Counted from the stretch's first letter, positions 42,043 through 64,000 are shown. The stretch: 64,000 bases of DNA from Candidatus Dormiibacterota bacterium (GCA_003131685.1 PKWB01000147.1:1580-65579), one strand, 5' to 3'. A program made the numbers and translations. Notes: a model not told the origin generated them from the letters alone.

Positions 42043-42044
42043 CC

Positions 42045-44005: not shown

Positions 44006-44130
44006 CTCGCCCGTGATTCTGGCGGCCCGTCACGGAGGCGGCCGGCCAGGTTTCGAGATTGTCAACGGATTGCTACCCTATTGCTTGATGAGGCGCGGAT
44101 TCGGCGATCGGAGGTCGTGAATCGCCGCTG

Positions 44131-46698: not shown

Positions 46699-46706
46699 AG
46701 CCGATC

Positions 46707-48827: not shown

Positions 48828-49837
48828 GGCGTCGTACGGCGCGCGTCTCGTTGCTGCGGAGGGTGCGGCTCAACAGGTGTCGTCTCCGCGACGACATATG
48901 GGGGCCGCTCGAGCAGCCGAAGATGCATGCGCGCCAGGTACTCACCCATGATGCCGAGTATCAGCAGTTGCACTCCGGCAAAGACGGCGATGATGGACGC
49001 GAGAAACGGGAATCCGGGAACGGAGTCACCTGCGGCGAAGCTTCGCACCACCACAACGATGAACACAACTGCACCGAAGATCGTGAAGAGAAACCCGACC
49101 AGGCTCGCGATGCGCAGCGGTCGCGTGGTGAAGCCGGTCATCATGTTGAGCGCGTGATGCACGAGCCGCCCAAAGGTGTAGCCGGACTGACCTCCGGCGC
49201 GCGGCTCCTGCCGCACATTGACGACGGCGAATCGCGTCGTCGCCCAGGTGAGGAGGACGTCGATCGAGATGTCGGGACTTTGATAGCGCTCGAATGCACC
49301 CCGCAGGTCGGTGCGGAAGAGGCGAAACGCGCTCACGCTCCGTGCCGCGGTGGCCCCCATCGCCTCCTCGAGGGCGTACTTGGTGATGCGCGACGCGGCT
49401 GACCGCCAGAGGCTGTGCTGCTCTGACACCGGTGTTCCGTAGACCACGTCAACGTCAGGCGTGAGTCGCGCGAGGAGGTGCGTGATCTCCTCTGGCGGGT
49501 TCTGCAGATCGTCATCGAGGGTGACGATCAACGGATATCGAGCCTTCCGGATCCCGACGAGGAGTGCGTTGTGCTGACCGAAGTTGCGCATGAGCCTGAT
49601 GCCGTGGATCCGGTCATCGTGGCTCGCCGCATCCGCGATAACAGCCCAACTCCGGTCGGGGCTTCCGTCATCGACCAGGATGATCTCGTGAGCGGTGGCG
49701 AGAGCTTCGAGCGCCGTGGTGAGACGCGCGATAAGGAGCGGAAGAATCGCCTCGGACCTGTGCACCGGGACAACCGCCGATATCCCATCGACGCGGTCGG
49801 TGGTCTGATCTGCAGGCGCCAGCACGGCGTCAGCCAC
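48824..49837 (-). CDS. GT2 polyprenyl-phosphate sugar synthase (ArnC/GtrB-like), second copy
   Basis: ISAVVPVHRSE...IILVDDGSPD...LDDDLQNPPEEI plus C-terminal TM helices. Confidence 0.85.
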   Translation of the reverse strand: MADAVLAPADQTTDRVDGISAVVPVHRSEAILPLLIARLTTALEALATAHEIILVDDGSPDRSWAVIADAASHDDRIHGIRLMRNFGQHNALLVGIRKARYPLIVTLDDDLQNPPEEITHLLARLTPDVDVVYGTPVSEQHSLWRSAASRITKYALEEAMGATAARSVSAFRLFRTDLRGAFERYQSPDISIDVLLTWATTRFAVVNVRQEPRAGGQSGYTFGRLVHHALNMMTGFTTRPLRIASLVGFLFTIFGAVVFIVVVVRSFAAGDSVPGFPFLASIIAVFAGVQLLILGIMGEYLARMHLRLLERPPYVVAETTPVEPHPPQQRDARRTTP

Positions 49838-49839
49838 GG

Positions 49840-50730
49840 CTATCTGCGCTCCTCCGCCGGCGCGCTGGGCTCGGTGCTCGCGGTTCCCTTCCGCGCCACG
49901 ACCACATCCTGATAGACGAAGGACTCCAGCTTCCGACCGGTCCAGCCACCGAATCGGATTGGCGGGACGATGGTGAGACCGTGGCTCTCATGGAACGTGT
50001 TGATGACATCAGGCGTGAACCCGATGCCGAAGTTGGGGTTGTCCAGGTCGGCGACGTAGACGCCGTCGCCCTGTCTCACGTAACGACGGTCCGCGCGCCC
50101 GGACTGCATGGCCTCGACCGCGAAGTCGTCCATGACGAAGAACGTGTTGAGGCACATCCCTCCAGGGCGCAGGACACGAGATGTCTCCCCCAGGTAGTGA
50201 TCCACCGTTGCTCGGCTCAGATGGGTGTACACGGACATCGAGAACGCGAGATCGAAGGTGGCCTCTGGGTATGGAAAGACAAGGTCTTCTCCCCGGATCG
50301 TTCCCCGCCCTCTGACGTTGATGTAACCAACCGGGGCGTATGCAAACAAGAAGTTCGAGAGACGACCGTACGAGCGCTGACACCAGGCCACCGCGCGGGG
50401 ATCGACGTCGAATCCCCGGTACTGCCCATCCTTGGAGAGGTACGTCGTCAACGCGCGAGCGATACGACCGATCCCGGAGCCGATATCGAGCACCTGCTGG
50501 TCAGGTTGCAAGTTCCCATACGTCTTGAGCATCGCAGCGACGCGATCGCCCGACGTGATGAACTCGCGGGCATAATCGCCGCGCCGCGGTGTGAATCCGA
50601 TGTTGGGATTGATCTGGCGAGGTGGTACGAGGGCGGGGAGCGCCCGTTGCCCTCGATCGAGCGCGTCATACGTCGTGTGGAGAACTCGACGCAGCGTGTT
50701 ACCAGCCGTGCGCTTGACGTTTTGGACCAT
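49840..50730 (-). CDS. Class I SAM-dependent methyltransferase
   Basis: VLDIGSGIGRIARAL motif I, FDLAFSMSVYTHL, PGGMCL. Confidence 0.7.
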   Translation of the reverse strand: MVQNVKRTAGNTLRRVLHTTYDALDRGQRALPALVPPRQINPNIGFTPRRGDYAREFITSGDRVAAMLKTYGNLQPDQQVLDIGSGIGRIARALTTYLSKDGQYRGFDVDPRAVAWCQRSYGRLSNFLFAYAPVGYINVRGRGTIRGEDLVFPYPEATFDLAFSMSVYTHLSRATVDHYLGETSRVLRPGGMCLNTFFVMDDFAVEAMQSGRADRRYVRQGDGVYVADLDNPNFGIGFTPDVINTFHESHGLTIVPPIRFGGWTGRKLESFVYQDVVVARKGTASTEPSAPAEERR

Positions 50731-50734
50731 GCGG

Positions 50735-52960
50735 CTACCCTACCGCAAGAATGATGGCGTCAGCGTTGCTGTACACCACATGACCGAGCTGCAGCACCGC
50801 GGCATCGTGGATGCCGTGGAGGCGATCGATGAAGAGCAAGTGCACCGAGTACTGGCTCGTCATGGTCTGGAGCGCGCCGGCGTCCGCATGGTCGAAGACG
50901 GCATTGTTGAGCATCTGTCGATCGGCAAAGGCCGTTGCCGTCGGCGATGCGAGCCCCGGCGTGACGCCGTAGCGGATGGGGTCATATGCCTCGATGAAGA
51001 CCTGACGTTCCGAGAATGCCGTGTAGTAGAAATACTTGCCATTCCCCATGGCCGGATCGAGCCAGTGGTTGTTGACGGCGAACACGGTGTTGACCGACGT
51101 GTGATCGTGCAGCCACTGCAGAGCGGTCACGAGTCCGGGGGCGAGCACCACCTGCGACGAGGTGGTGGGGGTGCCTGCGAGCATCTTTCGCACGGTCGGA
51201 TAGACGGTGAGGGGTGTGGTCACAACCGCCGCTGCCACCAGCGGGATGAGCCCGAGAGCGAGCGCTCCTGATGCGAAACGCCGGCGTGCCAGAACGACCA
51301 GCGCCCAGACGATCACGAAGACCAGGATGGCGGCGACGAAACCGGCGTAAAAGAGCATCGTCGTCCTCGGCGCGGTGATCGACTGCGAAGCGATCTTGCC
51401 CACTGCGATGAGCAGCACGACCCAGGACGCCAACGCGATCGCGATCCCGCGCCGGGAAACCGGCAGTGCACGCCCAGCGTCCATCCAGGCCAGCCGCAAG
51501 CCGCCGCCGGCGGCGATGGCCCCGGCGACATAACCCGTTTCCTCGAAGTATCCCTCGCTGTATGAAACTTGATGCACGACGCTGGCGATGCAAATGCCAC
51601 CAGCGAGCATGCAGAGCGGGAGCACGAATGACGACAGTTCATGGCGGTGCCGGCGTCGGAGCAGGTAGAGGATCCCAGCGAGCGGCAGGAGGAACCCGGC
51701 AAGTCCGGCGGCAAACGCGAAGGGAAGAACAAACTGGCGCAGCAGCGTGTGCTGGATCCCCAAAGCGAAAACCACCGGAGGTGTGCCGTTGAGCCACATC
51801 AGGAAACTGATGACCGTGTCCGGGGCGGTTCCCGCGTAGATGACCGCGTAGGTGATGACGAAGACAACGACTCCCAGTCCCACGGTCACGATCGCGGCTC
51901 TGGGAGCCGTGCGGCGAAACAGAAGATGCAGCACCGTGTACAGACCGGTACCGACGATGATGACGGGGAGAACCGTTGCCTTCGCACCGGACGCGCCGAT
52001 CATGAGCAGGGTGATCAGCGCCCAGGAGCGAAGATCGCTGGACGTGCGCCACGTGGCATTGCGGAGCCGTTCGGTGATCAAGTAGAGCAGAGCAAGGAAG
52101 AACATCAACCCGAATGGGAATGTCCAGCTGTTCCAGAGATTGATGAGGACGCCGTCGCCGAAGGGGGTTCCTGTTGAGTGCGCGATAACGCCGAGCGGTC
52201 CCATGAGAAAAAGAATCCCCACTGCGATCGCCCCGGTCCACGCGGCGCCACCGATGAGACGTCCCACGGCGAGAAGCTGGCAGCCGACCACGACGATGGT
52301 CGGCACATAGTCCAGCCTCAGCGCGATGATCGGGATCGCAAGGTGCGTTACCTGGCTTGCCGCGGCCATGTGAAAGAAGACAAACCACTCGTAATGGAGT
52401 GCAATGCCTGCCAGGCCGGGGCTGGTCGGCGGCCAGTGGTTCATCACCTGCGCGATGAGCCCGATGAAGTATGGGAAATCCGGGTATTCGAGCACCACGG
52501 AGGAACTCGGCAATGGGGCCTGGGGGAGCAGCATGATCGTCAGATAGACGATCCCCACTGACAGAGCCCCCGCGACGGTCCACATCAGCGCGCGAGACAT
52601 CCCGTCCGGGTCTGGATCGTTCTGCACCGCCCTCCGACGCCTGTAGATGACGAGAGCGCTCGGGACAATCACCACCACGGGATAGAGGACGAAAAGGCCC
52701 CGCAGCCCGAGGGATGCAGTGGCGCTGAATGCCAGGATCTCGAGCGTCTGACCGAGTGGCCATCCAAGCGCGATGGTGACCAGGAAGTGTGTGCGACGCC
52801 CGCGAACTGCCCACAACAGTGCCGCCCCGGGAAGCGCTACGAAGGCCGCGTCGTAGGCGAGGAACTTGATGACGTCGAGGACAGCGACCCCGGTGATGAG
52901 CCAGCCGATCACGGCCACCACGACAACCAGTGCGGACGGTCCGAGCGCGCGACGGAGCAT
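50735..52960 (-). CDS. GT-C-like polytopic membrane glycosyltransferase candidate (paralog of 46707..48827)
   Basis: 741 aa, 13 or more TM segments, acidic motif EYPDFPYF in an early loop, soluble C-terminal domain. Co-operonic with a methyltransferase and a polyprenyl-P-sugar synthase. Confidence 0.55.
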   Translation of the reverse strand: MLRRALGPSALVVVVAVIGWLITGVAVLDVIKFLAYDAAFVALPGAALLWAVRGRRTHFLVTIALGWPLGQTLEILAFSATASLGLRGLFVLYPVVVIVPSALVIYRRRRAVQNDPDPDGMSRALMWTVAGALSVGIVYLTIMLLPQAPLPSSSVVLEYPDFPYFIGLIAQVMNHWPPTSPGLAGIALHYEWFVFFHMAAASQVTHLAIPIIALRLDYVPTIVVVGCQLLAVGRLIGGAAWTGAIAVGILFLMGPLGVIAHSTGTPFGDGVLINLWNSWTFPFGLMFFLALLYLITERLRNATWRTSSDLRSWALITLLMIGASGAKATVLPVIIVGTGLYTVLHLLFRRTAPRAAIVTVGLGVVVFVITYAVIYAGTAPDTVISFLMWLNGTPPVVFALGIQHTLLRQFVLPFAFAAGLAGFLLPLAGILYLLRRRHRHELSSFVLPLCMLAGGICIASVVHQVSYSEGYFEETGYVAGAIAAGGGLRLAWMDAGRALPVSRRGIAIALASWVVLLIAVGKIASQSITAPRTTMLFYAGFVAAILVFVIVWALVVLARRRFASGALALGLIPLVAAAVVTTPLTVYPTVRKMLAGTPTTSSQVVLAPGLVTALQWLHDHTSVNTVFAVNNHWLDPAMGNGKYFYYTAFSERQVFIEAYDPIRYGVTPGLASPTATAFADRQMLNNAVFDHADAGALQTMTSQYSVHLLFIDRLHGIHDAAVLQLGHVVYSNADAIILAVG

Positions 52961-52980: not shown

Positions 52981-54729
52981 TCAGGAGGAAACCGCACCCT
53001 CAGGCCGGCTCCCGCGTGGGGCGACGGTGGACGTTCCGTTGAGGATGCCTTCCACCACCCGATCGAGGGCGGGGTCCACCCCGGGATCCAGATCGCTCGC
53101 CTGGACCGCTCGGATCCGGGGGCTGCTGCGGCCGTCCTCGGTGACTGCTCCGAGGACGTTGTGGAACCTGAAGAAGAGGAGCACTGCGTACCGGCGGGCG
53201 AGCTCGCGGATCCGGTCTCGCTCCTGCGTGTCAGGAGGATCGCTGAGCAGACGATCGGCCTCCGCCCAATAATCATCATCGGTATTCGGGTCGAACGTGA
53301 AGCCCCGGCCTCGGTAGTGCGTGTCAGCCGCGACAAGCACCGGCACACCACGAGCGGCCAGCTCGAGTCCGACTGTCGAGGAATAGACGAATCCCAGCAT
53401 GGCCTCGTCCATGAACACGTACGAGCTGGTCGGATCGTCCGCCTGCACCACCCGGACATTCGTCGGGAGGACGGGCACATATCGCGCGATGTGATCCGCC
53501 ATGCGTTCACGCGTGGGGTGGTTGCGTAACTTGATCTCTGCGGGGTGGATTCGGACCACCAGGTCGATCTCCGGGTGCCGGCGCGCCCAGTTGATCCCCT
53601 GGATCACCCATTCACCCATTCCCGCGAAGGCGATCTCGCGTTCGAGGACCGCGCTGTCCCACATGATGTTGCAGAACATGACGACCAGCGGCCGCCCGGC
53701 CCCGAGGCGGAAGTCTCGGTGAATCCGGTCGACGTCGTCGACGGGCTCGGTCCAGAAGTTGTTAGGCACGCCGATCCCGCGGCGCCGCTGACCGAGATAC
53801 GCGTCGATCGCCTGTGATTCATCCTCGGTGAGCGGAGTGTCACGGACGCCTTCCCAGGTTCCCGCCGGCACCTTGAGGTGGGAAGCGGTGGCTCCCGTGG
53901 TCATCACGATGCTGTCGTGTATGAAGCCTTTCTCATACGTACCAAAGGGAATCCCGCGCTCGCCGGCCACCGCCATCATGATCTGCTCGGCGAAGAACGT
54001 GCCGTTCAGCATGAACACGCGTTCCGGGGTGACGCGGTCGAGCATGGCGCGCAGTCCCCGGGCGACGACGGTCCCGCTGATCAGAAAAGAGCGATATGTG
54101 TCGACAACCTCGGGCGTGTCGGGAAGCGTTCCTCGTGAGAGGAACCACGCAACCGAGATGCGCACCAGGCGTCCGAGTGGCAGCCCTTGATCGACGTAGG
54201 CCTCGCATTCGCTCACCGTTGTGAGCCTGGCCACTCGCTTGCGAGCGATCTTGACGTCGAGGTCGACATCAAGGACGTCGTGCAGCGAGACGCTTTCGAA
54301 GCCTGCGGCGCGAATGGCTCCGGAAACGTATTCTCGGCACGAGTGGCAGGGCATCGGCGGCGAGGCATCAACGGTCATCACCTCGCAGATCGGGAGGCGC
54401 CCACCGCAGTACGCGAAGATCGCGTCGCCGCCTCGTCGCCGGACCGCATGGCCCAGGACGGTCTCGATGATGACGTGGGTCGACCAGCCACGCCAGCTCA
54501 TGAACAGGACGCGTTCAGACCCTGGCACGGGCGTGGTGGCCGTGACCGCGATCTGATGCAGCGCCTTCCATTCGGGCGGATCGAATGGCCTCGGGAGGCC
54601 CACCTGTGCGGCGGTCTCGCGGCCGGCGCCCCACACCTCACGCATCCGGCGCTTCCATCGGGGGTGGCGCCACGCCCAGTCGAGCACCCGTCCGCGGATG
54701 CTCGGGCGCCTTGGGGTCAAGTCATTCAA
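52981..54729 (-). CDS. TagF/KpsC-like HP-motif GT-B transferase (capsule/teichoic-type polymer synthesis family). Candidate glycerophospho- or nonulosonate transferase.
   Basis: 582 aa with VVRIHPAEIKLRNHP and downstream YVFMDEAMLGFVYSSTVGLELAARGVPVL, resembling the CDP-glycerol glycerophosphotransferase / Capsule_synth HP-motif fold. N-terminal Cys cluster (C-x7-C...C-x2-C). Confidence 0.5.
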   Translation of the reverse strand: MNDLTPRRPSIRGRVLDWAWRHPRWKRRMREVWGAGRETAAQVGLPRPFDPPEWKALHQIAVTATTPVPGSERVLFMSWRGWSTHVIIETVLGHAVRRRGGDAIFAYCGGRLPICEVMTVDASPPMPCHSCREYVSGAIRAAGFESVSLHDVLDVDLDVKIARKRVARLTTVSECEAYVDQGLPLGRLVRISVAWFLSRGTLPDTPEVVDTYRSFLISGTVVARGLRAMLDRVTPERVFMLNGTFFAEQIMMAVAGERGIPFGTYEKGFIHDSIVMTTGATASHLKVPAGTWEGVRDTPLTEDESQAIDAYLGQRRRGIGVPNNFWTEPVDDVDRIHRDFRLGAGRPLVVMFCNIMWDSAVLEREIAFAGMGEWVIQGINWARRHPEIDLVVRIHPAEIKLRNHPTRERMADHIARYVPVLPTNVRVVQADDPTSSYVFMDEAMLGFVYSSTVGLELAARGVPVLVAADTHYRGRGFTFDPNTDDDYWAEADRLLSDPPDTQERDRIRELARRYAVLLFFRFHNVLGAVTEDGRSSPRIRAVQASDLDPGVDPALDRVVEGILNGTSTVAPRGSRPEGAVSS

Positions 54730-54827
54730 CGGTCGTGGCCCATGCGACCCAAACTATCATCTGGATGCATGTCCGCTCCTCCTCCCACTCCGTCTGCTGA
54801 GAGCGATACAAGGCAAATCGCTCAGTC

Positions 54828-55907
54828 GTGAGTGCACTGGTCTACGGCAACGCTGAGTTCCTGATCGGCACGCGCCCGGTCGGCGGCGACCATCCCTGCT
54901 ACGTCATCGCCGAGGCCGGCGCCAATCACAATCGCGACCTCGGTACAGCGTTTCGCCTCATCGAGGCCGCCGCGGCCGTGGGTGCTGATGCCGTCAAGTT
55001 TCAAACCTACACGGCTGAAGGGTTGTACTCGCGGCGGACGCCCGACATGAAGTATCTCAAGGACAAGGGGCTGGTCGGAGACCAGGAATCGGTGTGGGAG
55101 CTGATCAAGCGGGTCGAGATCCCCTGGGAGTGGCACGCGGATCTTGCACGCCATGCACGTGAGCTTGGTATCGCCTTCTTCTCAACGCCATTCGAGGAAG
55201 CCGCGGTCGACGTCCTCGAAGAGGTCGGAGTCCCCGCGTACAAGATCGCGTCCTACGAGGTGACTCACCTGCCCTTGATCGAGCGAGTCGCACGCACCGG
55301 CAAGCCGTTGCTCATCTCGACCGGCATGGCATCGCTCGGTGACATCGAGCGGGCTCTCGACACGGCGTCGGCTGCCGGCGCCACCGACCTCCTCGTCATG
55401 CATTGTGCGGTCAACTATCCACCTCGGTTTGCGGATCTCAATCTACGGGCTATCACAACGCTGCGCAGTGCCTTCCAGATCCCGATCGGTTGGTCCGACC
55501 ACACCATGGGCCACACGGCCGATGTCGTCGCCGTGACCCTGGGAGCGTGCGCGGTGGAGAAGCACTTCACGCTGAGCAGGGACCAAGCGGGTCCCGATCA
55601 CCCATTTGCGCTGGAGCCTCAGGAACTTGCGGAGATGGTCACCGCGATTCGGGAGGCGGAGGAGTCGCTCGGTTCAAGCGTCAAGAGGGTTACCACGGCA
55701 GAGGCAGACCTCTTCCGGCTCGGCCGCCGCAGCATTGTTGCTGCGCGCGACATCCCCGCCGGCGACGAGCTCACGCGCGAGGATCTCGCCATCAAGCGAC
55801 CGGGATTTGGCATTCCGGTGGAGTCGCTTGACCAGGTCGTCGGCCGGCACGTCGCGCACGACGTCGCCGGGGATCAGGTGCTCCAATGGGATGACCTGGT
55901 TCGCTAA
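54828..55907 (+). CDS. pseI: Nonulosonic acid synthase (NeuB/PseI/LegI family; pseudaminic acid synthase-like)
   Basis: TIM-barrel NeuB motifs (CYVIAEAGANHNRDLGTAF, AVKFQTY) and C-terminal SAF domain (AARDIPAGDELTREDLAIKRPGFGIP). Confidence 0.85.
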   Translation: MSALVYGNAEFLIGTRPVGGDHPCYVIAEAGANHNRDLGTAFRLIEAAAAVGADAVKFQTYTAEGLYSRRTPDMKYLKDKGLVGDQESVWELIKRVEIPWEWHADLARHARELGIAFFSTPFEEAAVDVLEEVGVPAYKIASYEVTHLPLIERVARTGKPLLISTGMASLGDIERALDTASAAGATDLLVMHCAVNYPPRFADLNLRAITTLRSAFQIPIGWSDHTMGHTADVVAVTLGACAVEKHFTLSRDQAGPDHPFALEPQELAEMVTAIREAEESLGSSVKRVTTAEADLFRLGRRSIVAARDIPAGDELTREDLAIKRPGFGIPVESLDQVVGRHVAHDVAGDQVLQWDDLVR

Positions 55908-55909
55908 GG

Positions 55910-56416
55910 ATGACGCCACCGCTCGTCACGCTGCGTCTTGCACGCGATGACGACGCCGATCGTCTCCTCGAGTGGCGCAATGACGCAGACGCCGTCCGCT
56001 TCGGCGTCAGCGGCCGGCACGTGACCGGCGAGGATCACGCGCGGTGGTTCGCGACGCGACGCCGCGACCCGAGCGTGCACCTCTGGATTGCGGAAGTGGA
56101 CGGGACTCCGGTGGGACAGGTGCGTGTTGACGACGAACCTGACGGTGTTGGTGTGGTGTCGGTCGCGGTTGCCCCCGCACATCGGGGGCGGGGGATCGGA
56201 TCCGAGATGCTCCGAGCGATGGCCGCCACCGTTGTCGCAGAGACGACGGTGTGCGTGTTGAAAGCGCTTGTCCATCCCGACAATGTGCAATCCATCCGTG
56301 CGTTCGAGAGGGCGGGCTTCGGCATGACGGCGTCAAAAGAGGGCGGTTTCACCGTGCTCGAAAGGGCCGTTGGCGAAGAACGCACGCAAGGGAGGATCAG
56401 TCGACCGCCCGTATGA
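55910..56416 (+). CDS. GNAT-family N-acetyltransferase (PseH-like position, immediately after pseI)
   Basis: 168 aa. GNAT motif A (VVSVAVAPAHRGRGIGSEMLRAM). Confidence 0.7.
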   Translation: MTPPLVTLRLARDDDADRLLEWRNDADAVRFGVSGRHVTGEDHARWFATRRRDPSVHLWIAEVDGTPVGQVRVDDEPDGVGVVSVAVAPAHRGRGIGSEMLRAMAATVVAETTVCVLKALVHPDNVQSIRAFERAGFGMTASKEGGFTVLERAVGEERTQGRISRPPV

Positions 56417-57716
56417 CCCCTGACGCTGCCAGCCGATCGAGAATCTCGACAACAGCGGAGGTCGGCACGCCCGTCCGTTCCGCAAGTCGCTCCACGTCGT
56501 GGTCGCCGTCGCAGTACGCGAGCACGTTCATCATCACTCGTGCATCGGTTGCGCTTCCCTTGTAGCTGGTCGTTGGGTAGAGCCCGCGTGGACCGAGCTG
56601 CGGCTCGCCGGGCAGCACCGCCCGCCAACGCCGGTTGGACTCGAGCAGCTCGATACAGCGGCGGATGACGTCAAGACCGCCCTGGAGACCTGCCGGCGTG
56701 ACGACGTCGAGCCCGTCGAGGCTCGTGTGATATTCCGGGAAGGTGCCGTACTTGGAGCGCATCACCGAGCAGACCGGGAGGTCGGCACCAGGCGAGCACC
56801 ATTGCCGCTCGTCGCTGCCCCGTTCGAGGAAGCTGTACTCCACCCAAGCCGGCACCGACTCGTCGAGCACGCAGCGCGAGACCCGGTCGGCGAGGGTCCC
56901 GCCGAGTCGCGACGGGACATACGAGAACGCGCGGTCGTCACCGATGCACGTGACCACCCAGCCGGCACGCACCCGCTGACGCAGGTGATCGAGATGGCGC
57001 GACAGGTACACGATGGCGCCGATGGTCTCCGGCGCGAACACGAGTCGATACGTGTACCGCCGTGTGGGCAGCGAGGCGAGCCAGCGTCCCAGCGCCACCG
57101 TGACCACCGGTCCCGACAGCTCGTTGTTGGCCATCGACGGGTGGCACATGTACGTCGAGAGCAGCACCTCATCCTCGGTCTCGCCAGGGATCACCACGTC
57201 GGCATACGTGAGCGACCCTGGCGCCAGTGTGGAGTCGATTCGAACTTGGAATGGACCCGAACCGAGTTGCTCACGATGCTTCTGCGTCAGGCAAAACCCC
57301 CACGTACGCTTGTAGTAGGAGGTCACGTACGGGATCGCATCCGGTTGCTCCGCCAGCGAGTGGAGATGCGGCTCGAGCTCGTCACGACCCATGACCTGGT
57401 CGACGGGCTCGGAGTAGCCGACAACGTGAAGATTCGACTCTCGGAAGTCGACCAGGCGGCGGCCGTCGAGATCGGCGATGTAGGCGTCTCGAATGTTCCA
57501 CTCATCCGGGATCGTCCAGTCGAGAGCGCGCGTGCCGCTGGGGACCTCGTGCACCTCGAGCGACGGCAGCAGCGTCTGGAGGTATGCGAGCGTCGTGCGC
57601 ACGCCATCACCGGTGAGGCTGCGGCAGATCGGAAAAAGCTCGGTCGCCCACCTGTGCAGATCGGCCCCCGTGTCCACGGGAGACGATGCTGCCGTTCGAG
57701 GTGGGCTAGCCGTCAT
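56397..57716 (-). CDS. DUF4910/DUF2172 aminopeptidase-like domain protein (COG4310-like) with a C-terminal winged helix
   Basis: M28-like peptidase-fold region typical of COG4310 proteins found in polysaccharide loci. C-terminal VERLAERTGVPTSAVVEILDRLAASGVI wHTH-like. Start chosen after the stop of the upstream gene. Confidence 0.55.
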   Translation of the reverse strand: MTASPPRTAASSPVDTGADLHRWATELFPICRSLTGDGVRTTLAYLQTLLPSLEVHEVPSGTRALDWTIPDEWNIRDAYIADLDGRRLVDFRESNLHVVGYSEPVDQVMGRDELEPHLHSLAEQPDAIPYVTSYYKRTWGFCLTQKHREQLGSGPFQVRIDSTLAPGSLTYADVVIPGETEDEVLLSTYMCHPSMANNELSGPVVTVALGRWLASLPTRRYTYRLVFAPETIGAIVYLSRHLDHLRQRVRAGWVVTCIGDDRAFSYVPSRLGGTLADRVSRCVLDESVPAWVEYSFLERGSDERQWCSPGADLPVCSVMRSKYGTFPEYHTSLDGLDVVTPAGLQGGLDVIRRCIELLESNRRWRAVLPGEPQLGPRGLYPTTSYKGSATDARVMMNVLAYCDGDHDVERLAERTGVPTSAVVEILDRLAASGVIRAVD

Positions 57717-58518
57717 GTTCGACGCTGTACAGCAGGCCTTCTGCCCTTCCATCGTCGATGACGCGTTCCACTGCGGCAAAGAGACGATCCGCATCGATGA
57801 CTCGGAGTCCGGATCCCTCGCCCGGGCGATCGCCGCTGTAGAGCGATTGCTCCCAGAGGAGTTCGCCCATCGGATCGACATCGGTCTTGACACCTTGCTC
57901 GAGATCCCGAACGAAGAGACCGTACTCCCGTCGTGCCGTTACGCCCGAAGAGTCGGTGTAGTCACCCGCAAAGCTCTTGTGAAAACGGTACGGAACGTTC
58001 TTCATCTCTTCGACGTGATGGTAGAAGGTCATGCTGTGCTGGTCGGGAAGATCAAGGATCGCGATACGGCCGCCAAGCACACGGAGTCTCGCAAACGGCG
58101 AATCAGCGCCATACCCACTGAAGTTGTCGATGTCCGCGAACTCCTCGGCGCGAGCACCGATCACAGCAAAGGAATAGATCGGATGCCCGGTGCGGACAGC
58201 GCCGTCCAGCTGGCGCGCGGTTTCGGTCAGCACACCCATCTGGCTCGGAGTGGTGCGGATATCGAAGGCGACGCCCTCTGTGAACTCGAAGTTGAACAGC
58301 GGGAAAAGCAAGGTACCGGTGTCACCGACTGCTTCCCTGAAACTGTCGAGAATGTCGCCGACCGCGCCGGGCATGCCGCCTTGCACGCAACGCCGGACGG
58401 TGCGTCGCAAGCTGCTGTGAATCAGGACGAGGTCGCCAGTGCGTATCCCCGCATGGCGCCAGTCCTCAGCGAGCGAGGTCACGGCCTGATCATCCATCGC
58501 GTCTCCTCGTGTCCCCAA
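57706..58518 (-). CDS. AAC(3)-family (Antibiotic_NAT) N-acetyltransferase
   Basis: 270 aa. GDLVLIHSSLRRTV...TGTLLFPLF...THHVEEMKNVPYR, diagnostic of aminoglycoside 3-N-acetyltransferase-like enzymes. Confidence 0.7.
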   Translation of the reverse strand: MGTRGDAMDDQAVTSLAEDWRHAGIRTGDLVLIHSSLRRTVRRCVQGGMPGAVGDILDSFREAVGDTGTLLFPLFNFEFTEGVAFDIRTTPSQMGVLTETARQLDGAVRTGHPIYSFAVIGARAEEFADIDNFSGYGADSPFARLRVLGGRIAILDLPDQHSMTFYHHVEEMKNVPYRFHKSFAGDYTDSSGVTARREYGLFVRDLEQGVKTDVDPMGELLWEQSLYSGDRPGEGSGLRVIDADRLFAAVERVIDDGRAEGLLYSVEHDG

Positions 58519-58546
58519 CGCATCATCGTTCAGACAACCCTCCGCA

Positions 58547-59908
58547 CTACTCCTTATCCTCGCGGCGCCAGAGGGTGGAGGTTGCCATACCGCGGGCCTG
58601 GCGAGCTTGATCCCGGCGCCGTGCCACGCGACGTTGCTGGCCGGTTATCTGCGCCACTGGTGCGGCGATCGTCCAGACAGCCTCCGCCGCCACCGATCGT
58701 GCGAGCAACGCCGGGGCGAAGCGTCGCCGGCGGAGGTCAAGGGCGTGCCGGGCGGGACCGGTAGGCCAGTCTGCGGCGATCGCCTCGAGGCGCGCCGCGA
58801 CACGTTCAGTGGCGTGGCCGTCGATGTGGCCGAGCGCCTGCTCGTACCACGCGGCGCAGGCCGGGCCCGGCACCGCGCTCAGATCCTGCAGGAGCGCAGC
58901 AAGGTGCTCGGCAGATGATGCCTGGCGCAGGCATCCGGCCGGTGCCTCCTCGAATGGAATCAGACGCTCTCGAAACCGCTCGTACTCGTCTCCCCAGGCT
59001 GCATAGATGACGGACTTCCGCGCGGCGACGGCCTCGTACAGGGCGGTTGTCTGAAACCCGACCACCGCGTCTGCCGCGACGATCAGCTCGCGGGTGTCGG
59101 CACCGATCTCCGCTACTGAGAATCCGTGGCGCCAGAGTGCCCCCGCCTCGCGCGCAAGTCGGGCTGACTCGACCTCCTGGTTCTGCTGCGGGTGGCACTT
59201 GACGATGACCTCGCACGAACCAGAACGGGCCGCAGTCATGAGCACCGCCTCGGTCCCGTTGCGGAGCTGCCTCCAGGTGGACGGTCGAGGGTCCTGTGCG
59301 GCGCGGGGAACATATGCGTCGAGTGCGTAGGAGAGCAGCAGCACCCGAGGGCGCGGGTTCGCGGGCCTGGACGTCTGCGTTGCGTACATGTCGATGCGCG
59401 GCTGGCCGGTCACCTCGACGTGGCTTCGCTCAGCGCCGGCACGGAGCCAGAACTCCATGTGCCGTTCACTGCACACCGTCATGAAGTCGGAGATGAACGG
59501 CGCCGCCGCCCGCATGTTTGCGCTGTGGACCTGCATGGTACCCACAGAGACCGTCGTCTCCTTTTGCACAACCACCACCGGGATACCGAGCGCATGGGCG
59601 GCGCCGGGGAGGCTGCGAACGTAGAAGAAGGTGTCCGATGGCAGGACGATGACGTCAAAGGCCTGCTCCAGATACAGGCGGCGCACCTCGCCGAACAGCC
59701 ATCGCGCATACCGGCGTCGCGCCGGTTCCAGGTCGGCGCGATTGTAGGTATCGAGACCGGTTGCCACGTCGTTGCCGAGCATTCGCAGGGCCGGTCCGCG
59801 GAGGCGCTGATACGGGAACCGGCGGACACGCAGGCGCGGATGCGCTTCCAGAGCACGAAGATCCTGATCGAAGTAGTGGTCCAGGGCGAGGACCTGGAGA
59901 CGTTCCAT
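58547..59908 (-). CDS. TagF/KpsS-like HP-motif transferase candidate (second copy; putative nonulosonate or phospho-sugar transferase)
   Basis: CEVIVKCHPQQN HP motif and GT-B-like C-half. Start at MERLQV. ATGA-coupled to the upstream flippase gene. Confidence 0.45.
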   Translation of the reverse strand: MERLQVLALDHYFDQDLRALEAHPRLRVRRFPYQRLRGPALRMLGNDVATGLDTYNRADLEPARRRYARWLFGEVRRLYLEQAFDVIVLPSDTFFYVRSLPGAAHALGIPVVVVQKETTVSVGTMQVHSANMRAAAPFISDFMTVCSERHMEFWLRAGAERSHVEVTGQPRIDMYATQTSRPANPRPRVLLLSYALDAYVPRAAQDPRPSTWRQLRNGTEAVLMTAARSGSCEVIVKCHPQQNQEVESARLAREAGALWRHGFSVAEIGADTRELIVAADAVVGFQTTALYEAVAARKSVIYAAWGDEYERFRERLIPFEEAPAGCLRQASSAEHLAALLQDLSAVPGPACAAWYEQALGHIDGHATERVAARLEAIAADWPTGPARHALDLRRRRFAPALLARSVAAEAVWTIAAPVAQITGQQRRVARRRDQARQARGMATSTLWRREDKE

Positions 59909-61461
59909 CAGGGCACCCGGCGCACGGGGCGGAGAAACCCGAAGAGGGAATTGCGCTCTTCGGCGTCCATTGCAAATCGGGCGACGCCCACGACGTAGAC
60001 GATGCCCGCCGGGATGCAGCACGCGGCAATCGTGATCAGCCCTACCGGCTGGATGAACCAGGCCGTGGCCGCGAGGATTGCGGCAAAGACCAGCGCCCAG
60101 ACAAGCACGGGCAGGATGGCCTGACGGACGAACTCGCCAACCCCCATCGAGAGCAGATTGAGCGCAAGCCGGATGTACAGCGGGGCTGTGATGCCGTAGC
60201 CGATGAGCGTTCCGATGATGACACCGGAGATCCCGAGTGGTCGAACCAACGCGATCGAGATCAGGAGGTTGATCACCATCGCGGAGGTGGCGTAGAGGGC
60301 GATGATGCGCATGCGGCCCAGCCCGATCGGGATCGTGTGCGCGATGGTCGCCGAGCTGATGACGAGCTGATACACGAGGAAGAGCTGCGTCGGGCCGCTC
60401 ATGTACGCGTACTGTCCGCCGACCCAGGCGATGATGAGTGGTCGTGCAAGGATCATCGCGGCGATGGTGGCGGGGAAGGAGAGCGCCAGCGTGTAGCGAG
60501 TGCCACGAATCAGCAGCGCACGTAGTCGCACCGTCGACTCGATCGCCGACAGGTTTGCCGCCGCCGGCACCACGGCCTGGGTGGTGAAGGAAAGCGGGTA
60601 TGAAGCCGCGCTCTGGAGCCGGTTGGCGATGTCATATCCGGTGAGCACTCGGACGGGGGCGGCCGATGCAAGGATCACCTTGTCCATTTGGGCCCAGATC
60701 ACACCGCTGATGGCGGCGACGAACGCCCACCCGCTGAACCCTGCCAGCGGCCTGAGCCCTGTTCGGCTGATGAGATGTGGCGACACGCGGAGCTCCGGGC
60801 ACGAGAGCCGCGCCATGAGCGCGTACCCGAGCGCGGAGTAGAAGCTGCTCGCGACAGTGACCGCACCAAACGCGATGACGCCATGGCCGGTACCGAGAAC
60901 CGCCACCACCGCGCCCGCGTACAGCAGCTGCCGGGACATGTCGACGGCCTTGATCCTTCCATACCGCTGGAGACCCTGCAGCAGACCGTAGAAAGCAAGC
61001 CCGGGGAGACTGCAGAGCGCCTCCGCAGCAAAAAGCACGAAGAGCAGACCGAGGGCCGATCGAAGCGATTCCGTTGGTACGTGAAAGAGATGCGCCGCCA
61101 GGACCGCCAGCACGAGCAGGACGAGGGCGGCGGCGACCCCGGTTCCGAGCAGGATGGCCAGCGCCGAGCTCACGACCTGACTCATGCGCTCCCGATCACC
61201 GCGTCCGTCCGCGTCTGCGATGAAGCGACTGACCCCCGCCTGCAGTCCGAGATCAGAGATGCTCAGATACCCGGCAGAGACGGAGAAGCTCAGCGCGAGC
61301 ACGAACACGCCGTAGGAGGTCATGCCGAGGCTTCGGATCGCGAACGCGACCACGAAGAAGTTGATGAGCAGCGAGAGCACGCCCACGATGCCACTGATCA
61401 GGGTGTTGCGGAAGACCCTGCGGCCGTGCGCTATCTCCGGCGGCAGATCGACGGTCGTCAT
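59908..61461 (-). CDS. wzx: Wzx-like oligosaccharide flippase (MOP/polysaccharide biosynthesis protein family)
   Basis: 12-14 TM helices with a Polysacc_synt-type N-terminus (VFRNTLISGIVGVLSLLINFFVVAFAIRSLG). Confidence 0.75.
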   Translation of the reverse strand: MTTVDLPPEIAHGRRVFRNTLISGIVGVLSLLINFFVVAFAIRSLGMTSYGVFVLALSFSVSAGYLSISDLGLQAGVSRFIADADGRGDRERMSQVVSSALAILLGTGVAAALVLLVLAVLAAHLFHVPTESLRSALGLLFVLFAAEALCSLPGLAFYGLLQGLQRYGRIKAVDMSRQLLYAGAVVAVLGTGHGVIAFGAVTVASSFYSALGYALMARLSCPELRVSPHLISRTGLRPLAGFSGWAFVAAISGVIWAQMDKVILASAAPVRVLTGYDIANRLQSAASYPLSFTTQAVVPAAANLSAIESTVRLRALLIRGTRYTLALSFPATIAAMILARPLIIAWVGGQYAYMSGPTQLFLVYQLVISSATIAHTIPIGLGRMRIIALYATSAMVINLLISIALVRPLGISGVIIGTLIGYGITAPLYIRLALNLLSMGVGEFVRQAILPVLVWALVFAAILAATAWFIQPVGLITIAACCIPAGIVYVVGVARFAMDAEERNSLFGFLRPVRRVP

Positions 61462-61474
61462 GCTGCGGCCTGCA

Positions 61475-62242
61475 TCATCCCCCGACGCGCCCGCGTCGCG
61501 CAGCGTCACGCTGAGCGTGGTATCGCTCGTTTCGCAGCGGCAGTCCGGTCTGGTCGCGGAGCGCCGGGTCCATCTCGAAGGCTGCCACGACCGCAGCCAG
61601 GTCGGGAGGTGGCGAGGACGGAAGCTTCGAGAGCAGCGCTTCCACGCGTGCAAGGTCCGCGGGGACATCGACGGTCAAGCGGATCCAGGAGAGGTCGCGA
61701 TCGGACGCCACCCGGACGATGCGGAACATGTCGGGTCGCTCGCGGGTCAGGGCGGTCACGTGTTCGCGCAGATAGCCGGCACTCGCTTCCTTATCGAGAC
61801 GGTCCAGGCACGCAGAAGTGAAGACCTCACAGTCATATCCCTCCGGAAACGTCGGCGGCTCGACGTTGCTCGCGTAATCGGCGTCATCGCGGCTTCGGGC
61901 GCCGATGACCGAGTCCACCACGGCGGGATCAGTGAGCGGACAGTCGGCGGTGATGCGCACGATGACGTCGGCGTCGTGCTCGCGTGCCGCCATGACATAG
62001 CGGGCCAACACATCGTCCTCGGGTCCCCGCGTCACCTCGGCACCCGACGCGCGGGCAAGTGTCGCAACGTCGTCATCGATGCTGCCGTCGGTGGTGGCGA
62101 CGACGACGCGGTCGACCAGCGTCGCGCGCGACACGCGCTCGATGATGTGAGCGAGCATCGGCCGTCCCTGGAGCGGTGCGAGCACCTTGCGTGGGAAGCG
62201 TGTCGATCCTGAGCGCGCCTGGATCACCGCGACGGTGGTCAT
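61475..62242 (-). CDS. pseF: CMP-nonulosonate (pseudaminic acid-type) cytidylyltransferase, PseF/NeuA/SpsF family
   Basis: MTTVAVIQARSGSTRFPRKVL is the hallmark CTP_transf_3 N-terminus. The ORF track's longer N-terminal extension is Arg-rich overread. Confidence 0.85.
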   Translation of the reverse strand: MTTVAVIQARSGSTRFPRKVLAPLQGRPMLAHIIERVSRATLVDRVVVATTDGSIDDDVATLARASGAEVTRGPEDDVLARYVMAAREHDADVIVRITADCPLTDPAVVDSVIGARSRDDADYASNVEPPTFPEGYDCEVFTSACLDRLDKEASAGYLREHVTALTRERPDMFRIVRVASDRDLSWIRLTVDVPADLARVEALLSKLPSSPPPDLAAVVAAFEMDPALRDQTGLPLRNERYHAQRDAARRGRVGG

Positions 62243-63225
62243 CAGGCGGCCCGAGCAGCGACGAGGTGGCGTATCGCCGCAGCGACCCGCGCAGCGCCGC
62301 GTCCATCGACCAGCGCGCGACCGCGCGTCGACATCTCCGCACGCCGAGCGGGATCGTCGAGGAGCGTCAGACACGCCCCGGCGAGTTCCGCCGGGTCAAC
62401 GACGACCGCGCATCCGGCGGCAGCAAGGGCGGCTGCCTGCGCTTCCTGGTTGCTCACCGCAGCGGTGATCACCGAGGGACATCCGACGCACGCGGCCTGG
62501 ACCGCGGTGGTGCCGGCTGCACCAACGTAGACGGTGGCAGTCCCGAGACCGCCGGCGAGGTCTGGTGGTGCAACCAGCAGAGATTCGCGCGGCCAAGCGT
62601 CACCGGCGAGCTCCATCGAGTCGGGCCCGACGACCCTGGTCACGGCCACGGTGGAGTCGCGATCCAGGAGCGCATGACTGACGGAGAGTCCGAGTCCCGC
62701 CGGATCGGTTGCACCGGTTGAAACCAGCACCGTCCGCGGTTCGCGGTCGCCCCGCGAAGCCATCTCGCGCGCGCTCACAACCGACGCGCGGATGAGCGCG
62801 TACGCCGCCCCGCCGAGAAAGGCTCGGGCACCATCGGGTCGCAGCGACTCGCCGCCCGGCGACGGATTGACCGCCAGGTCGCAGTCTGTCGGCAGGCGAA
62901 GGTCGTCCACCACCGTCAGTGGCGCGCGATCGCGAAGCCGTCGCTGGAGCCCGACATCGAAGACATATCCGTCGAGCACGACGGCGTCGAACAGAGGCGA
63001 CGCAGCCAATGCCGAGGCGACACGGAGAGGCGTGTCGCCCTGAGCATCAATGGGGGTGTGACCGCGATCGCTGACACGCCGTCGCAGAGCCGCGTCGCCC
63101 TCGGGGACCAGCACCGACGCCTCGACCTCCGGCCGCAGCGCCTCGGCGAGAGCGAGCATCCGCTCGAGGTGCCCCAGCCCGACGCCGCGGCCGCAGTCGG
63201 CGGCGAGCAACGCCCGCGAGGTCAC
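62242..63225 (-). CDS. pseG: PseG-like UDP-sugar hydrolase (MurG/GT28 C-domain-like, UDP-2,4-diacetamido-2,4,6-trideoxy-L-altropyranose hydrolase family)
   Basis: 327 aa, GT-B two-domain architecture without a membrane anchor. N-terminal GxGH-like (GRGVGLGHLERMLALAEAL). Positioned between pseC and pseF. Confidence 0.65.
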   Translation of the reverse strand: MTSRALLAADCGRGVGLGHLERMLALAEALRPEVEASVLVPEGDAALRRRVSDRGHTPIDAQGDTPLRVASALAASPLFDAVVLDGYVFDVGLQRRLRDRAPLTVVDDLRLPTDCDLAVNPSPGGESLRPDGARAFLGGAAYALIRASVVSAREMASRGDREPRTVLVSTGATDPAGLGLSVSHALLDRDSTVAVTRVVGPDSMELAGDAWPRESLLVAPPDLAGGLGTATVYVGAAGTTAVQAACVGCPSVITAAVSNQEAQAAALAAAGCAVVVDPAELAGACLTLLDDPARRAEMSTRGRALVDGRGAARVAAAIRHLVAARAA

Positions 63226-64000
63226 GACCTGACCGCGCCTGCCGTTGCCCAGACATGGATCCGCTGCAGGGCGAGGACGACGTCGTCCTGGTCGGTGACG
63301 GTCATGGCGGGGTAGAGCGGCAGGGTAATCAGTTGCTCGGACAGTCGCTCGGCGCGCGGCGCGATGCCGGGAACGCCGCCACGCTCGCGGTACAGCGCGA
63401 GCAGGTGCACCGCCGGGTAGTGCAGCGTCGCCTCGATACCCTCGGCGCGCAGCGCGTCGATGACCTCGTCACGATCGCATCCGTAGCCGGCAGGATCGAT
63501 CTCGATCGCGTAGAGGTGCCATGCGCTGCGACGGCCCGGCGGCCGGGGTGGAAGGCCGATGCCGGGAATATCGATGAGGATGGCGTCGTATCGGTCGGCC
63601 AGCTCGCTCCGCTCGGCGACGACGCTGTCGAGGCGGCGCAACTGAGCGATGCCGAGCGCAGCTTGCAGAGCGGTCAGGCGGTGGTTGTTTCCGAGCATGG
63701 TGACGTCGTATTTCCAGAGCGCGCCGGTGCGCTCGTCCGCGGTGCTGGTCATCCCATGGTTGCGCAGCTTGCGAATGCGATCCGCGATGCCCGCGTCCGC
63801 GGCCAGACATGCGCCGCCTTCGCCGGTGGTGATCTGTTTCACGGGGTGGAAGCTGAGCGTGGTGATGTCTGCCAGCGACCCGACCGGACGCCCGTTCAGC
63901 GAGGCGCCGAGCGAGTGCGCGCTATCGGCGATCACCGGAAGTGGCCGGGGCAGCGCCGCTTTGAGGGCGGCAACGTCCGATGGGAGACCCGAGTAATCGA
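63222..64000 (-). CDS. pseC: DegT-family aminotransferase, PseC-like (UDP-4-amino-4,6-dideoxy-N-acetyl-beta-L-altrosamine transaminase type). 5' end lies beyond the window.
   Basis: PLP-lysine motif SFHPVKQITTGEGG. The frame stays open upstream of the ORF-track Met to the window edge (…LPVIADSAHSLGA). Confidence 0.85.
   Translation of the reverse strand, partial: DYSGLPSDVAALKAALPRPLPVIADSAHSLGASLNGRPVGSLADITTLSFHPVKQITTGEGGACLAADAGIADRIRKLRNHGMTSTADERTGALWKYDVTMLGNNHRLTALQAALGIAQLRRLDSVVAERSELADRYDAILIDIPGIGLPPRPPGRRSAWHLYAIEIDPAGYGCDRDEVIDALRAEGIEATLHYPAVHLLALYRERGGVPGIAPRAERLSEQLITLPLYPAMTVTDQDDVVLALQRIHVWATAGAVRS

Follow-up and report, generated by a model that had tools for sequence, protein, structure and literature searches.

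The subject of this report is a stretch of 64,000 nucleotides from Candidatus Dormiibacterota bacterium (GCA_003131685.1 PKWB01000147.1:1580-65579; the whole stretch is called the window hereafter), and in particular a group of nonulosonic acid genes that occupies its right-hand end, from position 52,981 to 64,000. These genes probably represent the pseudaminic acid (Pse) half of a large cell-surface glycan locus of at least 30 kb, in which CMP-Pse would be made, optionally remodelled at an N-acyl group, transferred by two glycosyltransferases of GT-B fold and flipped across the membrane by a Wzx protein. Since the window has a G+C content of 63–71% and raw lists of open reading frames (ORFs) are accordingly noisy, genes were picked by third-position GC together with the gene calls of the source contig, a 100-kb metagenome scaffold (WOOD18-1_SAMN07124999; ENA scaffold WOOD18-1_..._scaffold_58; locus L001 in our set). 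Families were assigned by profile searches with Pfam and NCBIfam, and "cut-off" denotes the curated threshold of the named model. An original prediction, made from the sequence of the window alone, had named ten genes in this region, and all ten were found where it had placed them; they are given here together with pseB.

52981-54645, minus strand, Kps554, a GT-B protein of 554 amino acids with a KpsC/KpsS-like (Capsule_synth) C-terminal half, its gene diverging from the synthase gene
54828-55907, plus strand, pseI-type nonulosonate synthase with NeuB and SAF domains (Pfam NeuB)
55910-56416, plus strand, GNAT N-acetyltransferase in the pseH position (Acetyltransf_3), co-transcribed with pseI
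56397-57716, minus strand, DUF4910/DUF2172/HTH_47 metallopeptidase-like protein (three Pfam domains)
57706-58497, minus strand, AAC(3)-family N-acyltransferase (Antibiotic_NAT)
58547-59908, minus strand, GT453, a soluble GT-B protein of 453 amino acids with a weak TagF-type signal, from a TagF/BFO_1060-related family
59908-61461, minus strand, Wzx-type flippase for lipid-linked oligosaccharide (Polysacc_synt_3 and Polysacc_synt), 12 transmembrane segments predicted by hydropathy
61475-62242, minus strand, CMP-ulosonic-acid cytidylyltransferase in the pseF position (CTP_transf_3)
62242-63225, minus strand, pseG-like UDP-sugar hydrolase of GT-B type (best NCBIfam match PseG)
63222 to beyond 64000, minus strand, pseC-like UDP-4-amino-4,6-dideoxy-L-AltNAc aminotransferase, its 5' part cut by the window edge (full gene 405 amino acids on the source contig)
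L001 7774-8790, right of the window, pseB, 338 amino acids, upstream of pseC and overlapping its start by 4 bp

The gene that opens the pathway, pseB, had been expected just past the window edge, and the source contig carries it there: its product reaches 477.2 bits on the PseB equivalog TIGR03589 against a cut-off of 407.75, while the LegB model gives 59 bits against a cut-off of 475. Beyond pseB the contig holds unrelated genes (luciferase-like, toxin-antitoxin, ABC transporter), and pseB is therefore the right-hand end of the locus. The remaining enzymes are clear at the level of the family, with E values of 2.9e-61 for the PseC-like protein (DegT_DnrJ_EryC1), 1.9e-29 for the cytidylyltransferase (CTP_transf_3), 1.5e-19 for the GNAT (Acetyltransf_3) and 6.8e-92 for the synthase (NeuB). 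The proposal that the genes share one operon is reasonable, because the minus-strand genes from pseB to the DUF4910 gene overlap or are separated by no more than 49 bp; the GNAT and pseI genes form a plus-strand pair amid minus-strand neighbours, in convergent orientation. Neither a tRNA nor any other Rfam family was found within the window, so that nothing points to a classical site of integration.

The route that we favour would start with PseB and PseC, which are predicted to convert UDP-N-acetylglucosamine (UDP-GlcNAc) into UDP-4-amino-4,6-dideoxy-beta-L-AltNAc. The GNAT in the pseH position would acetylate the new amine, the PseG-like enzyme would take off UDP, the PseI-type synthase would condense the resulting hexose with phosphoenolpyruvate into pseudaminic acid, and the CTP_transf_3 enzyme would activate it as the CMP-sugar. 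GT453 and Kps554, soluble GT-B proteins with HP motifs of the type expected for CMP-activated donors, may then transfer Pse to a polyprenyl-linked oligosaccharide at the cytoplasmic face of the membrane, and Wzx would flip the product across. U741, a polytopic membrane protein encoded next to Kps554, and its relatives may polymerise the product or attach it to a carrier such as a polysaccharide, a wall polymer or a protein. One N-acyl group of Pse or of its precursor would most likely be remodelled through the DUF4910 metallo-amidase-like protein and the acyltransferase of AAC(3) fold, giving a strain-specific Pse derivative.

Conservation of the locus was followed with the GT453 profile, which was searched against one genome per GTDB species and returned 40 loci, and gene content was compared by tblastn of the window proteins against all of them. 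Thirty loci are of Dormibacterota type and ten belong to Actinomycetota (37–51% identity), among them Patulibacter minatonensis DSM 18081, Solirubrobacteraceae, Paraconexibacteraceae and Acidimicrobiales. Closest of all is the locus of the Stordalen palsa metagenome-assembled genome (MAG) palsa_859 (85%). GT453, Kps554 and the AAC(3)-like protein have their closest named homologues in Candidatus Dormibacterota, and the median G+C given for Dormibacteria, 66.9% (PMC10608941), fits the window. The host belongs to this phylum and is not an actinobacterium. A full nine-gene core in the same order is held by 18 of the 30 Dormibacterota-type loci: pseB-pseC-pseG-pseF-wzx-GT453 is collinear in all 18 and is followed by GNAT-pseI, Kps554 and usually U741. 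In most of the incomplete loci the contig or flank runs out before the missing genes are reached. The Wzx gene is always directly upstream of GT453 in the Dormibacterota loci, the GNAT gene adjoins pseI in 23/30 and U741 follows Kps554 in 17/30. One complete Dormibacterota locus (L027, DATKQX010000128.1; 60–88% protein identity) was deposited as Candidatus Saccharimonadales and is probably mis-binned.

This conserved order is combined with a mosaic of contents. Over the upstream flank and pseB-pseC-pseG the window shares 84–96% nucleotide identity with three related loci (L016, L019 and L041), and in a sliding comparison this identity collapses to 45–70% at approximately 62,060–62,150, inside pseF, whereas identity to L003 stays at 80–92% throughout, which marks a sharp recombination breakpoint. 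The distal genes, namely pseF, wzx, the two transferases, GNAT, pseI and U741, together with the slot that separates GT453 from GNAT, behave as an exchangeable cassette, and similar cassette exchange is a feature of O-antigen and capsule loci. A second breakpoint was not located, as the related loci end too soon. The slot itself (56397-58497 in the window) is variable: of the Dormibacterota loci, only that of the window and the four nearest to it by cassette (L003-L006) have the AAC(3) and DUF4910 genes there; it is empty with GT453 and GNAT abutting in L007, L008, L016 and L027, carries an FkbM-type methyltransferase and a 660-residue protein without assignment in L011, L013 and L019 (11.4–14.5 kb), and carries three ORFs of about 300 amino acids without assignment in L012, L017 and L026.

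To the left of Kps554 the window continues with other genes of glycan synthesis, which are as follows.

50735-52960, minus strand, U741, polytopic membrane protein with about 13–16 transmembrane segments (hydropathy) and a C-terminal soluble domain, downstream of Kps554 in the same transcription unit
49840-50730, minus strand, S-adenosylmethionine-dependent methyltransferase
48824-49837, minus strand, ArnC/PgfS-like polyprenyl-phosphate glycosyltransferase of family 2 (GT2)
46707-48827, plus strand, U706, polytopic membrane protein, paralogue of U741
45499-46821, minus strand, WecE-type dTDP-4-amino-4,6-dideoxyhexose aminotransferase
34261-44934, further glycan genes: nucleotide-sugar dehydrogenase, two short-chain dehydrogenase/reductase-type epimerase/dehydratases, two GT2, a split transketolase and two methyltransferases
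34261-35877, plus strand, WbaP/EPS-type polyprenyl glycosylphosphotransferase

The genes at 45499-50730 probably belong to the same surface-glycan locus; the GT2 and methyltransferase genes come after U741 in several related loci as well. U741 and U706 match no Pfam or NCBIfam model even at an E value of 1, and U741 is a candidate polymerase, ligase or GT-C-like transferase, the last role being guessed for both proteins from their topology and their ArnC/PgfS-like neighbour. The window encodes three polytopic membrane proteins of about 700 amino acids (46707-48827, plus strand; 50735-52960 and 31911-34079, minus strand), of which two are weak paralogues with 23–27% identity and no family match and one is a DUF6541 protein; two of the three flank the ArnC/PgfS-like GT2, an arrangement that looks like an extracytoplasmic glycosylation module. 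The transketolase is split into N-terminal and pyrimidine/C-terminal halves encoded as separate genes (39253-40137 and 40128-41054) between GT2 and methyltransferase genes, which suggests a two-carbon-branched or chain-extended sugar. Further to the left, between OsmC-like and malonyl-CoA decarboxylase genes, two ORFs of about 580 amino acids with coding-like third-position GC (13520-15244, minus strand; 15513-17285, plus strand) have no Pfam or NCBIfam match.

What the sugar is finally attached to may be a polysaccharide, a wall polymer or a protein. With Wzx as the flippase in place of an ABC exporter, a lipid-linked oligosaccharide unit is favoured, and such a unit could also end on protein, as an O-glycan of an S-layer protein, a flagellin or an adhesin of the kind known from Tannerella, Campylobacter and Clostridium, with U741 and U706 as oligosaccharyl- or glycosyltransferases. 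This alternative differs from the favoured explanation in the final acceptor only, and we regard it as rather unlikely. Most characterised Pse glycans are protein-linked, and the GT2 beside U741 and U706 resembles PgfS, of the S. mutans protein-glycosylation system, as well as ArnC. The closest precedent for GT453 also acts in a Wzx-dependent general O-glycosylation (PMC5420450). Against these points, the annotated genes of the 64-kb window include no Maf/FlmG-type flagellin transferase, no flagellar gene and no recognisable S-layer gene, and the WbaP-type priming enzyme with several GT2 fits a repeat-unit polysaccharide equally well. As Dormibacterota are placed as the sister group of Chloroflexota within Terrabacteria (PMC10608941), a single-membrane envelope, in line with the original description of the genome as monoderm-like, is plausible.

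GT453, the first of two putative pseudaminyltransferases, has no transmembrane segment by hydropathy, and its AlphaFold model (predicted local distance difference test score, pLDDT, 85.6) shows a GT-B fold with long basic C-terminal helices. Its motifs are QKETT at 115–119, TGQPRxD at 167–173, KCHPQQ at 237–242 (the HP motif being H239-P240) and GFQTTxxxE at 284–292. The residues that are invariant in 45 members of the family, down to 24% identity (H11, E117, G168, R171, D173, K237, H239, P240, T288 and G364), map to the QKE, GQPRxD, KxHPQ and GFQTTxxxE motifs, and the HP motifs that had been noticed in both transferases are real and invariant in the family alignments. The family is a small one: among 1.84 billion proteins it counts 168, 330 and 1166 representatives at E values of at most 1e-30, 1e-10 and 1e-3, respectively. 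All 45 sampled members match the BFO_1060 glycosyltransferase model (best E 4e-28) and TIGR04396, whereas the TarB and TarL models are matched by merely 1–2 of the 45. The window protein itself gives 27 bits on BFO_1060_trans (cut-off 200) and 31 bits on TIGR04396 (cut-off 125), and by these scores GT453 is a relative of the BFO_1060 family and not a member by cut-off. In Tannerella forsythia, deletion of BFO_1060/Tanf_01245, which is TagB-like and carries an HP motif, removes the terminal Pse derivative from the O-glycan (PMC5420450). The genes annotated in the locus allow just one CMP-activated donor to be predicted, CMP-Pse, and GT453 would therefore be a CMP-Pse-dependent transferase.

It can be asked whether GT453 is instead an ordinary teichoic-acid-type CDP-glycerol or CDP-ribitol phosphotransferase, so that Pse would be added by Kps554 alone or the two systems would be mere neighbours. 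TarL and TagF are the closest structural matches of its fold, and its score on Pfam PF04464 (TagF/Glyphos_transf) is 15.7 bits, under the cut-off of 22.1. Pse- or Kdn-containing "teichulosonic acids" do occur in Actinobacteria. Against a phosphotransferase of this kind speak the family-wide matches to BFO_1060 in place of TarB or TarL, the lack of any TagD/TarI/TarJ-type gene in the locus as annotated (no family could be assigned to several ORFs), and the position of GT453 directly after pseB-C-G-F-wzx in 18/18 complete loci, with a CTP_transf_3 gene as its companion in the actinobacterial loci too; we therefore hold this alternative to be improbable. A role as a NeuC-like hydrolysing epimerase was also considered and rejected, since GT453 has no Epimerase_2 signal, BFO_1060 is matched by every one of the 45 members and the locus already encodes a hydrolase of PseG type. 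The GT453-like gene of the cultured Patulibacter minatonensis DSM 18081 (L033; NZ_KI912613.1, 419–440 kb; 45% identity) lies in a cluster of wzx, GT453-like, GT2, GNAT, pseB, pseC, an unassigned gene, pseI and Acyl_transf_3.

Kps554 is proposed as the second pseudaminyltransferase. It scores 20.3 bits on PF05159 (Capsule_synth) against a cut-off of 20, over half of the model, and its predicted structure (pLDDT 86.5) is a GT-B fold for which KpsC structures give the best TM(target), 0.50–0.54; the sole matches of its profile in the PDB are four KpsC chains, at non-significant E values of 0.1–0.7, over the C-terminal nucleotide-binding motif. Invariant residues are Cys80/87/100/103, Y237-E238, W329-D330-S331, H367-P368 (RIHPAE) and S423-T424...E428. 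For comparison, the Acinetobacter baumannii protein KpsS1 is described in PMC12887879, which cites Walklett et al. 2024, as a KpsS/KpsC homologue with the catalytic glutamate in a YE motif and as a retaining Pse5Ac7Ac transferase of family GT118. The four cysteines of Kps554 (C80, C87, C100 and C103) sit in the N-terminal domain, within a loop modelled at low confidence, and may form a zinc-binding site, of which the KpsC/KpsS1 literature examined makes no mention. A profile–profile comparison of GT453 and Kps554 is not significant (E 0.055), with the HP motifs lined up, and we claim no homology between the two past the GT-B fold. They co-occur in 31 of the 40 loci, 8 of the 10 actinobacterial ones included, and therefore look like a functional pair; each might form its own kind of Pse linkage, or one might prime and the other extend. 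A 732-residue ORF in which the C-terminal half of a Kps554 homologue runs into a complete homologue of GT453 (P0053; L047 4414-6612) looked like a Rosetta-stone fusion and was set aside, as it is probably a frameshift, assembly or pseudogene artefact: on its contig the NeuB gene is split and just half a Kps554 domain is present.

The idea of two HP-motif transferases is plausible in the form of CMP-nonulosonate transferases, given the 45/45 BFO_1060 matches of GT453 and the KpsC-like fold and borderline Capsule_synth signal of Kps554, and some observations count against it. Searched both as single sequences and as profiles, neither GT453 nor Kps554 has a significant sequence match among solved structures. 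In the fold search with GT453, UDP-GlcNAc 2-epimerases rank about level with TagF and TarL, and Foldseek with both models returns generic GT-B matches, mostly such epimerases. Bacterial sialyltransferases carry HP and D/E-D/E-G motifs (Freiberger 2007, as cited in PMC5420450), and in GT453 the second of these is not clear, with just a conserved x-D-G at 362–364; in Kps554 no QxxxKD motif was found.

As for the identity of the sugar, the profile scores make it very likely that the pathway is of pseudaminic acid type, a call that rests mainly on PseB and the PseG-type step. The window fragment of the PseC-like protein has PseC as its best NCBIfam match (E 5.7e-67), and at full length it reaches 372.2 bits on TIGR03588, under the cut-off of 423.5, with the runner-up, an ArnB-type model, 100 bits lower. 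The PseG-like protein matches TIGR03590 over its full length (107.7 bits, E 7.8e-31; cut-off 153.55) and has no match among PDB sequences. The two remaining enzymes are assignable at family level only: the GNAT has PseH (TIGR03585) as a weak top match (46 bits, cut-off 93), and the cytidylyltransferase gives 43 bits on the PseF equivalog (cut-off 206), with KdsB subfamily models scoring higher and both kinds matched weakly. It tells against a Pse pathway that the PseC, PseG, PseH and PseF candidates all stay under their NCBIfam equivalog cut-offs, and that the raw bits of the synthase are higher on the NeuB model and on Bacillus subtilis SpsE than on PseI.

These same scores are what speaks for another 5,7-diamino nonulosonate (legionaminic (Leg), 8-epi-legionaminic or acinetaminic acid) or for sialic acid. 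The synthase gives 365.1 bits on the NeuB model (NeuB_NnaB) and 346.3 bits on PseI (TIGR03586), and its PDB matches rank as SpsE (229 bits), PseI 8h2c (200 bits) and SiaC, SpsE being assigned to the Leg pathway of B. subtilis in the account of PMC7439481. Named a NeuB/PseI synthase in the original prediction, this protein passes the PseI cut-off of 340.25, by a narrow margin, and misses the NeuB cut-off of 399.65; with the higher raw NeuB score and SpsE at the top of the PDB ranking, the synthase is not discriminating alone. The decision lies with its neighbours: PseB is the inverting 4,6-dehydratase that commits the pathway to the L-altro series and passes its cut-off with LegB far below, the UDP-removing step is of the PseG-type GT-B hydrolase kind, PseC and PseG are the best matches of their proteins, and no NeuC/LegG-type Epimerase_2 match appeared among the proteins scanned from 34 to 64 kb. 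A sugar other than Pse is thus a distinctly poor prospect, and the expectation of a Pse rather than a Leg or sialic acid pathway has held up.

The pair in the variable slot was at first taken for unusual accessory enzymes, a description that is overstated, since the AAC(3)-like/DUF4910 pair recurs across phyla and DUF4910 proteins were linked to modified Pse in 2010 and, four years later in 2014, to clusters of NeuB type. The AAC(3)-like protein matches Antibiotic_NAT at E 1e-30, reaches 81.4 bits on AAC_3 against a cut-off of 270 and true AAC(3) enzymes in the PDB at E values of about 1e-15, and judged from these scores it is of the same fold family as AAC(3) and of a different orthologous group. 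Orthologues with 59–67% identity are found in Pseudomonas, Mesorhizobium, Phycisphaerae and Zixibacteria, and in all four contexts checked an overlapping DUF4910 gene comes right after; two of the four, Pseudomonas and Mesorhizobium, have the pair beside NeuB-type clusters. In the window the DUF4910 gene, read from the ATG at 57716, shares 11 bp with the end of the AAC(3) gene; an alternative GTG start is at 57677. Two actinobacterial GT453/Kps554 loci also hold both genes. These are L040 (18050-20341) and L037, from Paraconexibacteraceae and Actinomycetes MAGs, which carry GT453-like, Kps554-like, cytidylyltransferase, AAC(3) and DUF4910 genes and have no pseB, pseC or pseI within 10 kb; L040 also has additional methyltransferases and a protein in which an AMP-binding enzyme and a "cyclase" domain are fused. 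The two genes are a conserved, horizontally mobile two-gene module, and one that is dispensable for the core pathway, as most Dormibacterota are without it.

The chemistry of this module can be approached through its better-known relatives. The DUF4910 protein matches its Pfam family at E 6.7e-102, with all three domains (DUF4910, DUF2172 and HTH_47) above cut-off, and aligns over its full length with PDB 3k9t (CA_C2195 of Clostridium acetobutylicum) at E 1e-103; the equivalents of the zinc ligands H179 and H317 are invariant and the acidic ligand is shifted by one residue (N185-E186). In ten bacterial clades, genes of the CA_C2195 family have those for NeuB, a cytidylyltransferase and an aminosugar N-acetyltransferase as neighbours (PMC4000134, 2014), and its winged helix-turn-helix domain has been read as an oligomerisation surface and not as a DNA binder (PMC4000134). 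Campylobacter jejuni Cj1295, assigned to PIRSF015244 like the window protein by literature family assignment and not by sequence comparison, is required for flagellin Pse with a 2,3-di-O-methylglyceroyl N-acyl group, was proposed by its authors to remove the 5-N-acetyl group, and is directly followed by Cj1296/7, annotated as an N-acetyltransferase (PMC3068675, 2010). By analogy, and with modest confidence, we suggest that the pair edits an N-acyl group by de-acylation followed by re-acylation, and it is reasonable to suppose, as was originally proposed, that the locus makes a Pse with a non-standard N-acyl group. Three findings stand against this assignment. The family keeps one zinc site without the canonical catalytic Asp and Glu of M28 peptidases (PMC4000134). 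In C. jejuni NCTC 11168 neither of the variants studied has Cj1296/7 in frame, not even the one where Cj1295 is (PMC3068675), and therefore the acyltransferase partner may not be required there. The pair also occurs without nearby sugar genes in Zixibacteria (L046 406-2473) and Phycisphaerae (L045 9001-10634), so that its substrate may not always come from neighbouring genes; both of these pairs lie amid housekeeping genes, with no sugar-biosynthesis gene in the available flanks (about 9 kb on at least one side). That the AAC(3) gene is an aminoglycoside resistance gene and the DUF4910 gene a peptidase or regulator, both passengers unrelated to Pse, is a very remote prospect even with the Antibiotic_NAT and PDB AAC(3) matches, the M28-like fold and winged-helix domain (PMC4000134) and these two sugar-free contigs, since the AAC_3 score and the distance to true AAC(3) enzymes, the position within the pse operon, where no gap exceeds 49 bp, the strict pairing across phyla and beside the NeuB clusters of Pseudomonas and Mesorhizobium, the genetic link of Cj1295 to modified Pse and the oligomerisation reading of the winged helix all point the other way.

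Pse pathways are already known in many phyla, Gram-positive ones included, and nothing here overturns current understanding. A literature search, incomplete in its coverage and weak as evidence of novelty, returned no paper linking Dormibacter* to pseudaminic or other nonulosonic acids, nor one on envelope ultrastructure; set against the literature that could be searched, the apparent novelty lies in the host phylum, the conservation throughout it, the cassette mosaicism and the divergent candidate pseudaminyltransferases, which come from two families with very few characterised members. Dormibacterota are abundant uncultured bacteria of soil and permafrost, and conservation of the Pse locus leads to the prediction of a definite envelope component in them, which phages or predators may encounter, which could be looked for with nonulosonate mass spectrometry and which might serve for labelling or enrichment. 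The cultured Patulibacter minatonensis could serve as an experimental model for the GT453 family, and the presence or absence of the AAC(3)-DUF4910 pair among related loci offers a natural contrast for a question of function that has been under discussion since 2010–2014 in Campylobacter, Pseudomonas and others. As a tentative picture, somewhat less likely than not, we offer a Pse envelope glycan conserved throughout the phylum and built by two uncharacterised transferase families and novel polytopic membrane proteins; the distal half of its locus (from inside pseF on, with wzx, the transferases and the slot) would be exchanged among lineages in the manner of a serotype cassette, and the widespread AAC(3)-DUF4910 pair would be a portable N-acyl editing module (deacylase and acyltransferase) for nonulosonates.

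Several known systems invite comparison. The CMP-Pse pathway of C. jejuni and H. pylori (PseB, C, H, G, I and F) has the same six-step enzyme set by family and the same adjacency of pseB and pseC, and the flagellin glycosylation locus of C. jejuni also contains a DUF4910-type protein and an N-acetyltransferase. The Dormibacterota locus differs in its host, an uncultured phylum of Terrabacteria, in PseC, PseG, PseH and PseF candidates too divergent for the equivalog cut-offs, and in having Wzx, two soluble GT-B proteins and polytopic membrane proteins instead of Maf-type flagellin transferases. With the TagF/TarL polymerases GT453 shares the fold and, as proposed here, the use of a donor with a CMP leaving group; those systems differ by having a TagGH/KpsMT-type ABC exporter in place of Wzx and by their CDP-alditol genes, which are not annotated here, and this argues against a processive teichoic-type polymer. 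T. forsythia is closer in several ways, as Tanf_01245/BFO_1060 is likewise a GT-B, TagB-like protein of similar length (~445–453 amino acids for the two) with an HP motif and no transmembrane segment, encoded beside nonulosonic acid genes and a flippase, whereas GT453 falls far under the family cut-off (27 vs 200 bits), shows no evident D/E-D/E-G motif, and has its counterpart in a diderm with a known S-layer target. KpsS1 of A. baumannii (GT118, related to the KpsS/KpsC beta-Kdo transferases of GT107), compared by description and not by its sequence, resembles Kps554 in its KpsC-like GT-B fold, with a threshold Capsule_synth match, invariant YE and HP and a gene adjoining that of a nonulosonate synthase, an adjacency of NeuB and Capsule_synth that the Mesorhizobium locus shows as well; Kps554 is larger (554 amino acids), has an N-terminal region with four invariant cysteines and shows no QxxxKD motif. 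Finally, CA_C2195 (3k9t) differs from the DUF4910 protein of the window in that its zinc ligand Asp195 aligns with Asn, Glu being at the next position, and it shares with it the same three domains and the same kind of neighbourhood, made up of NeuB, cytidylyltransferase and aminosugar N-acetyltransferase genes.

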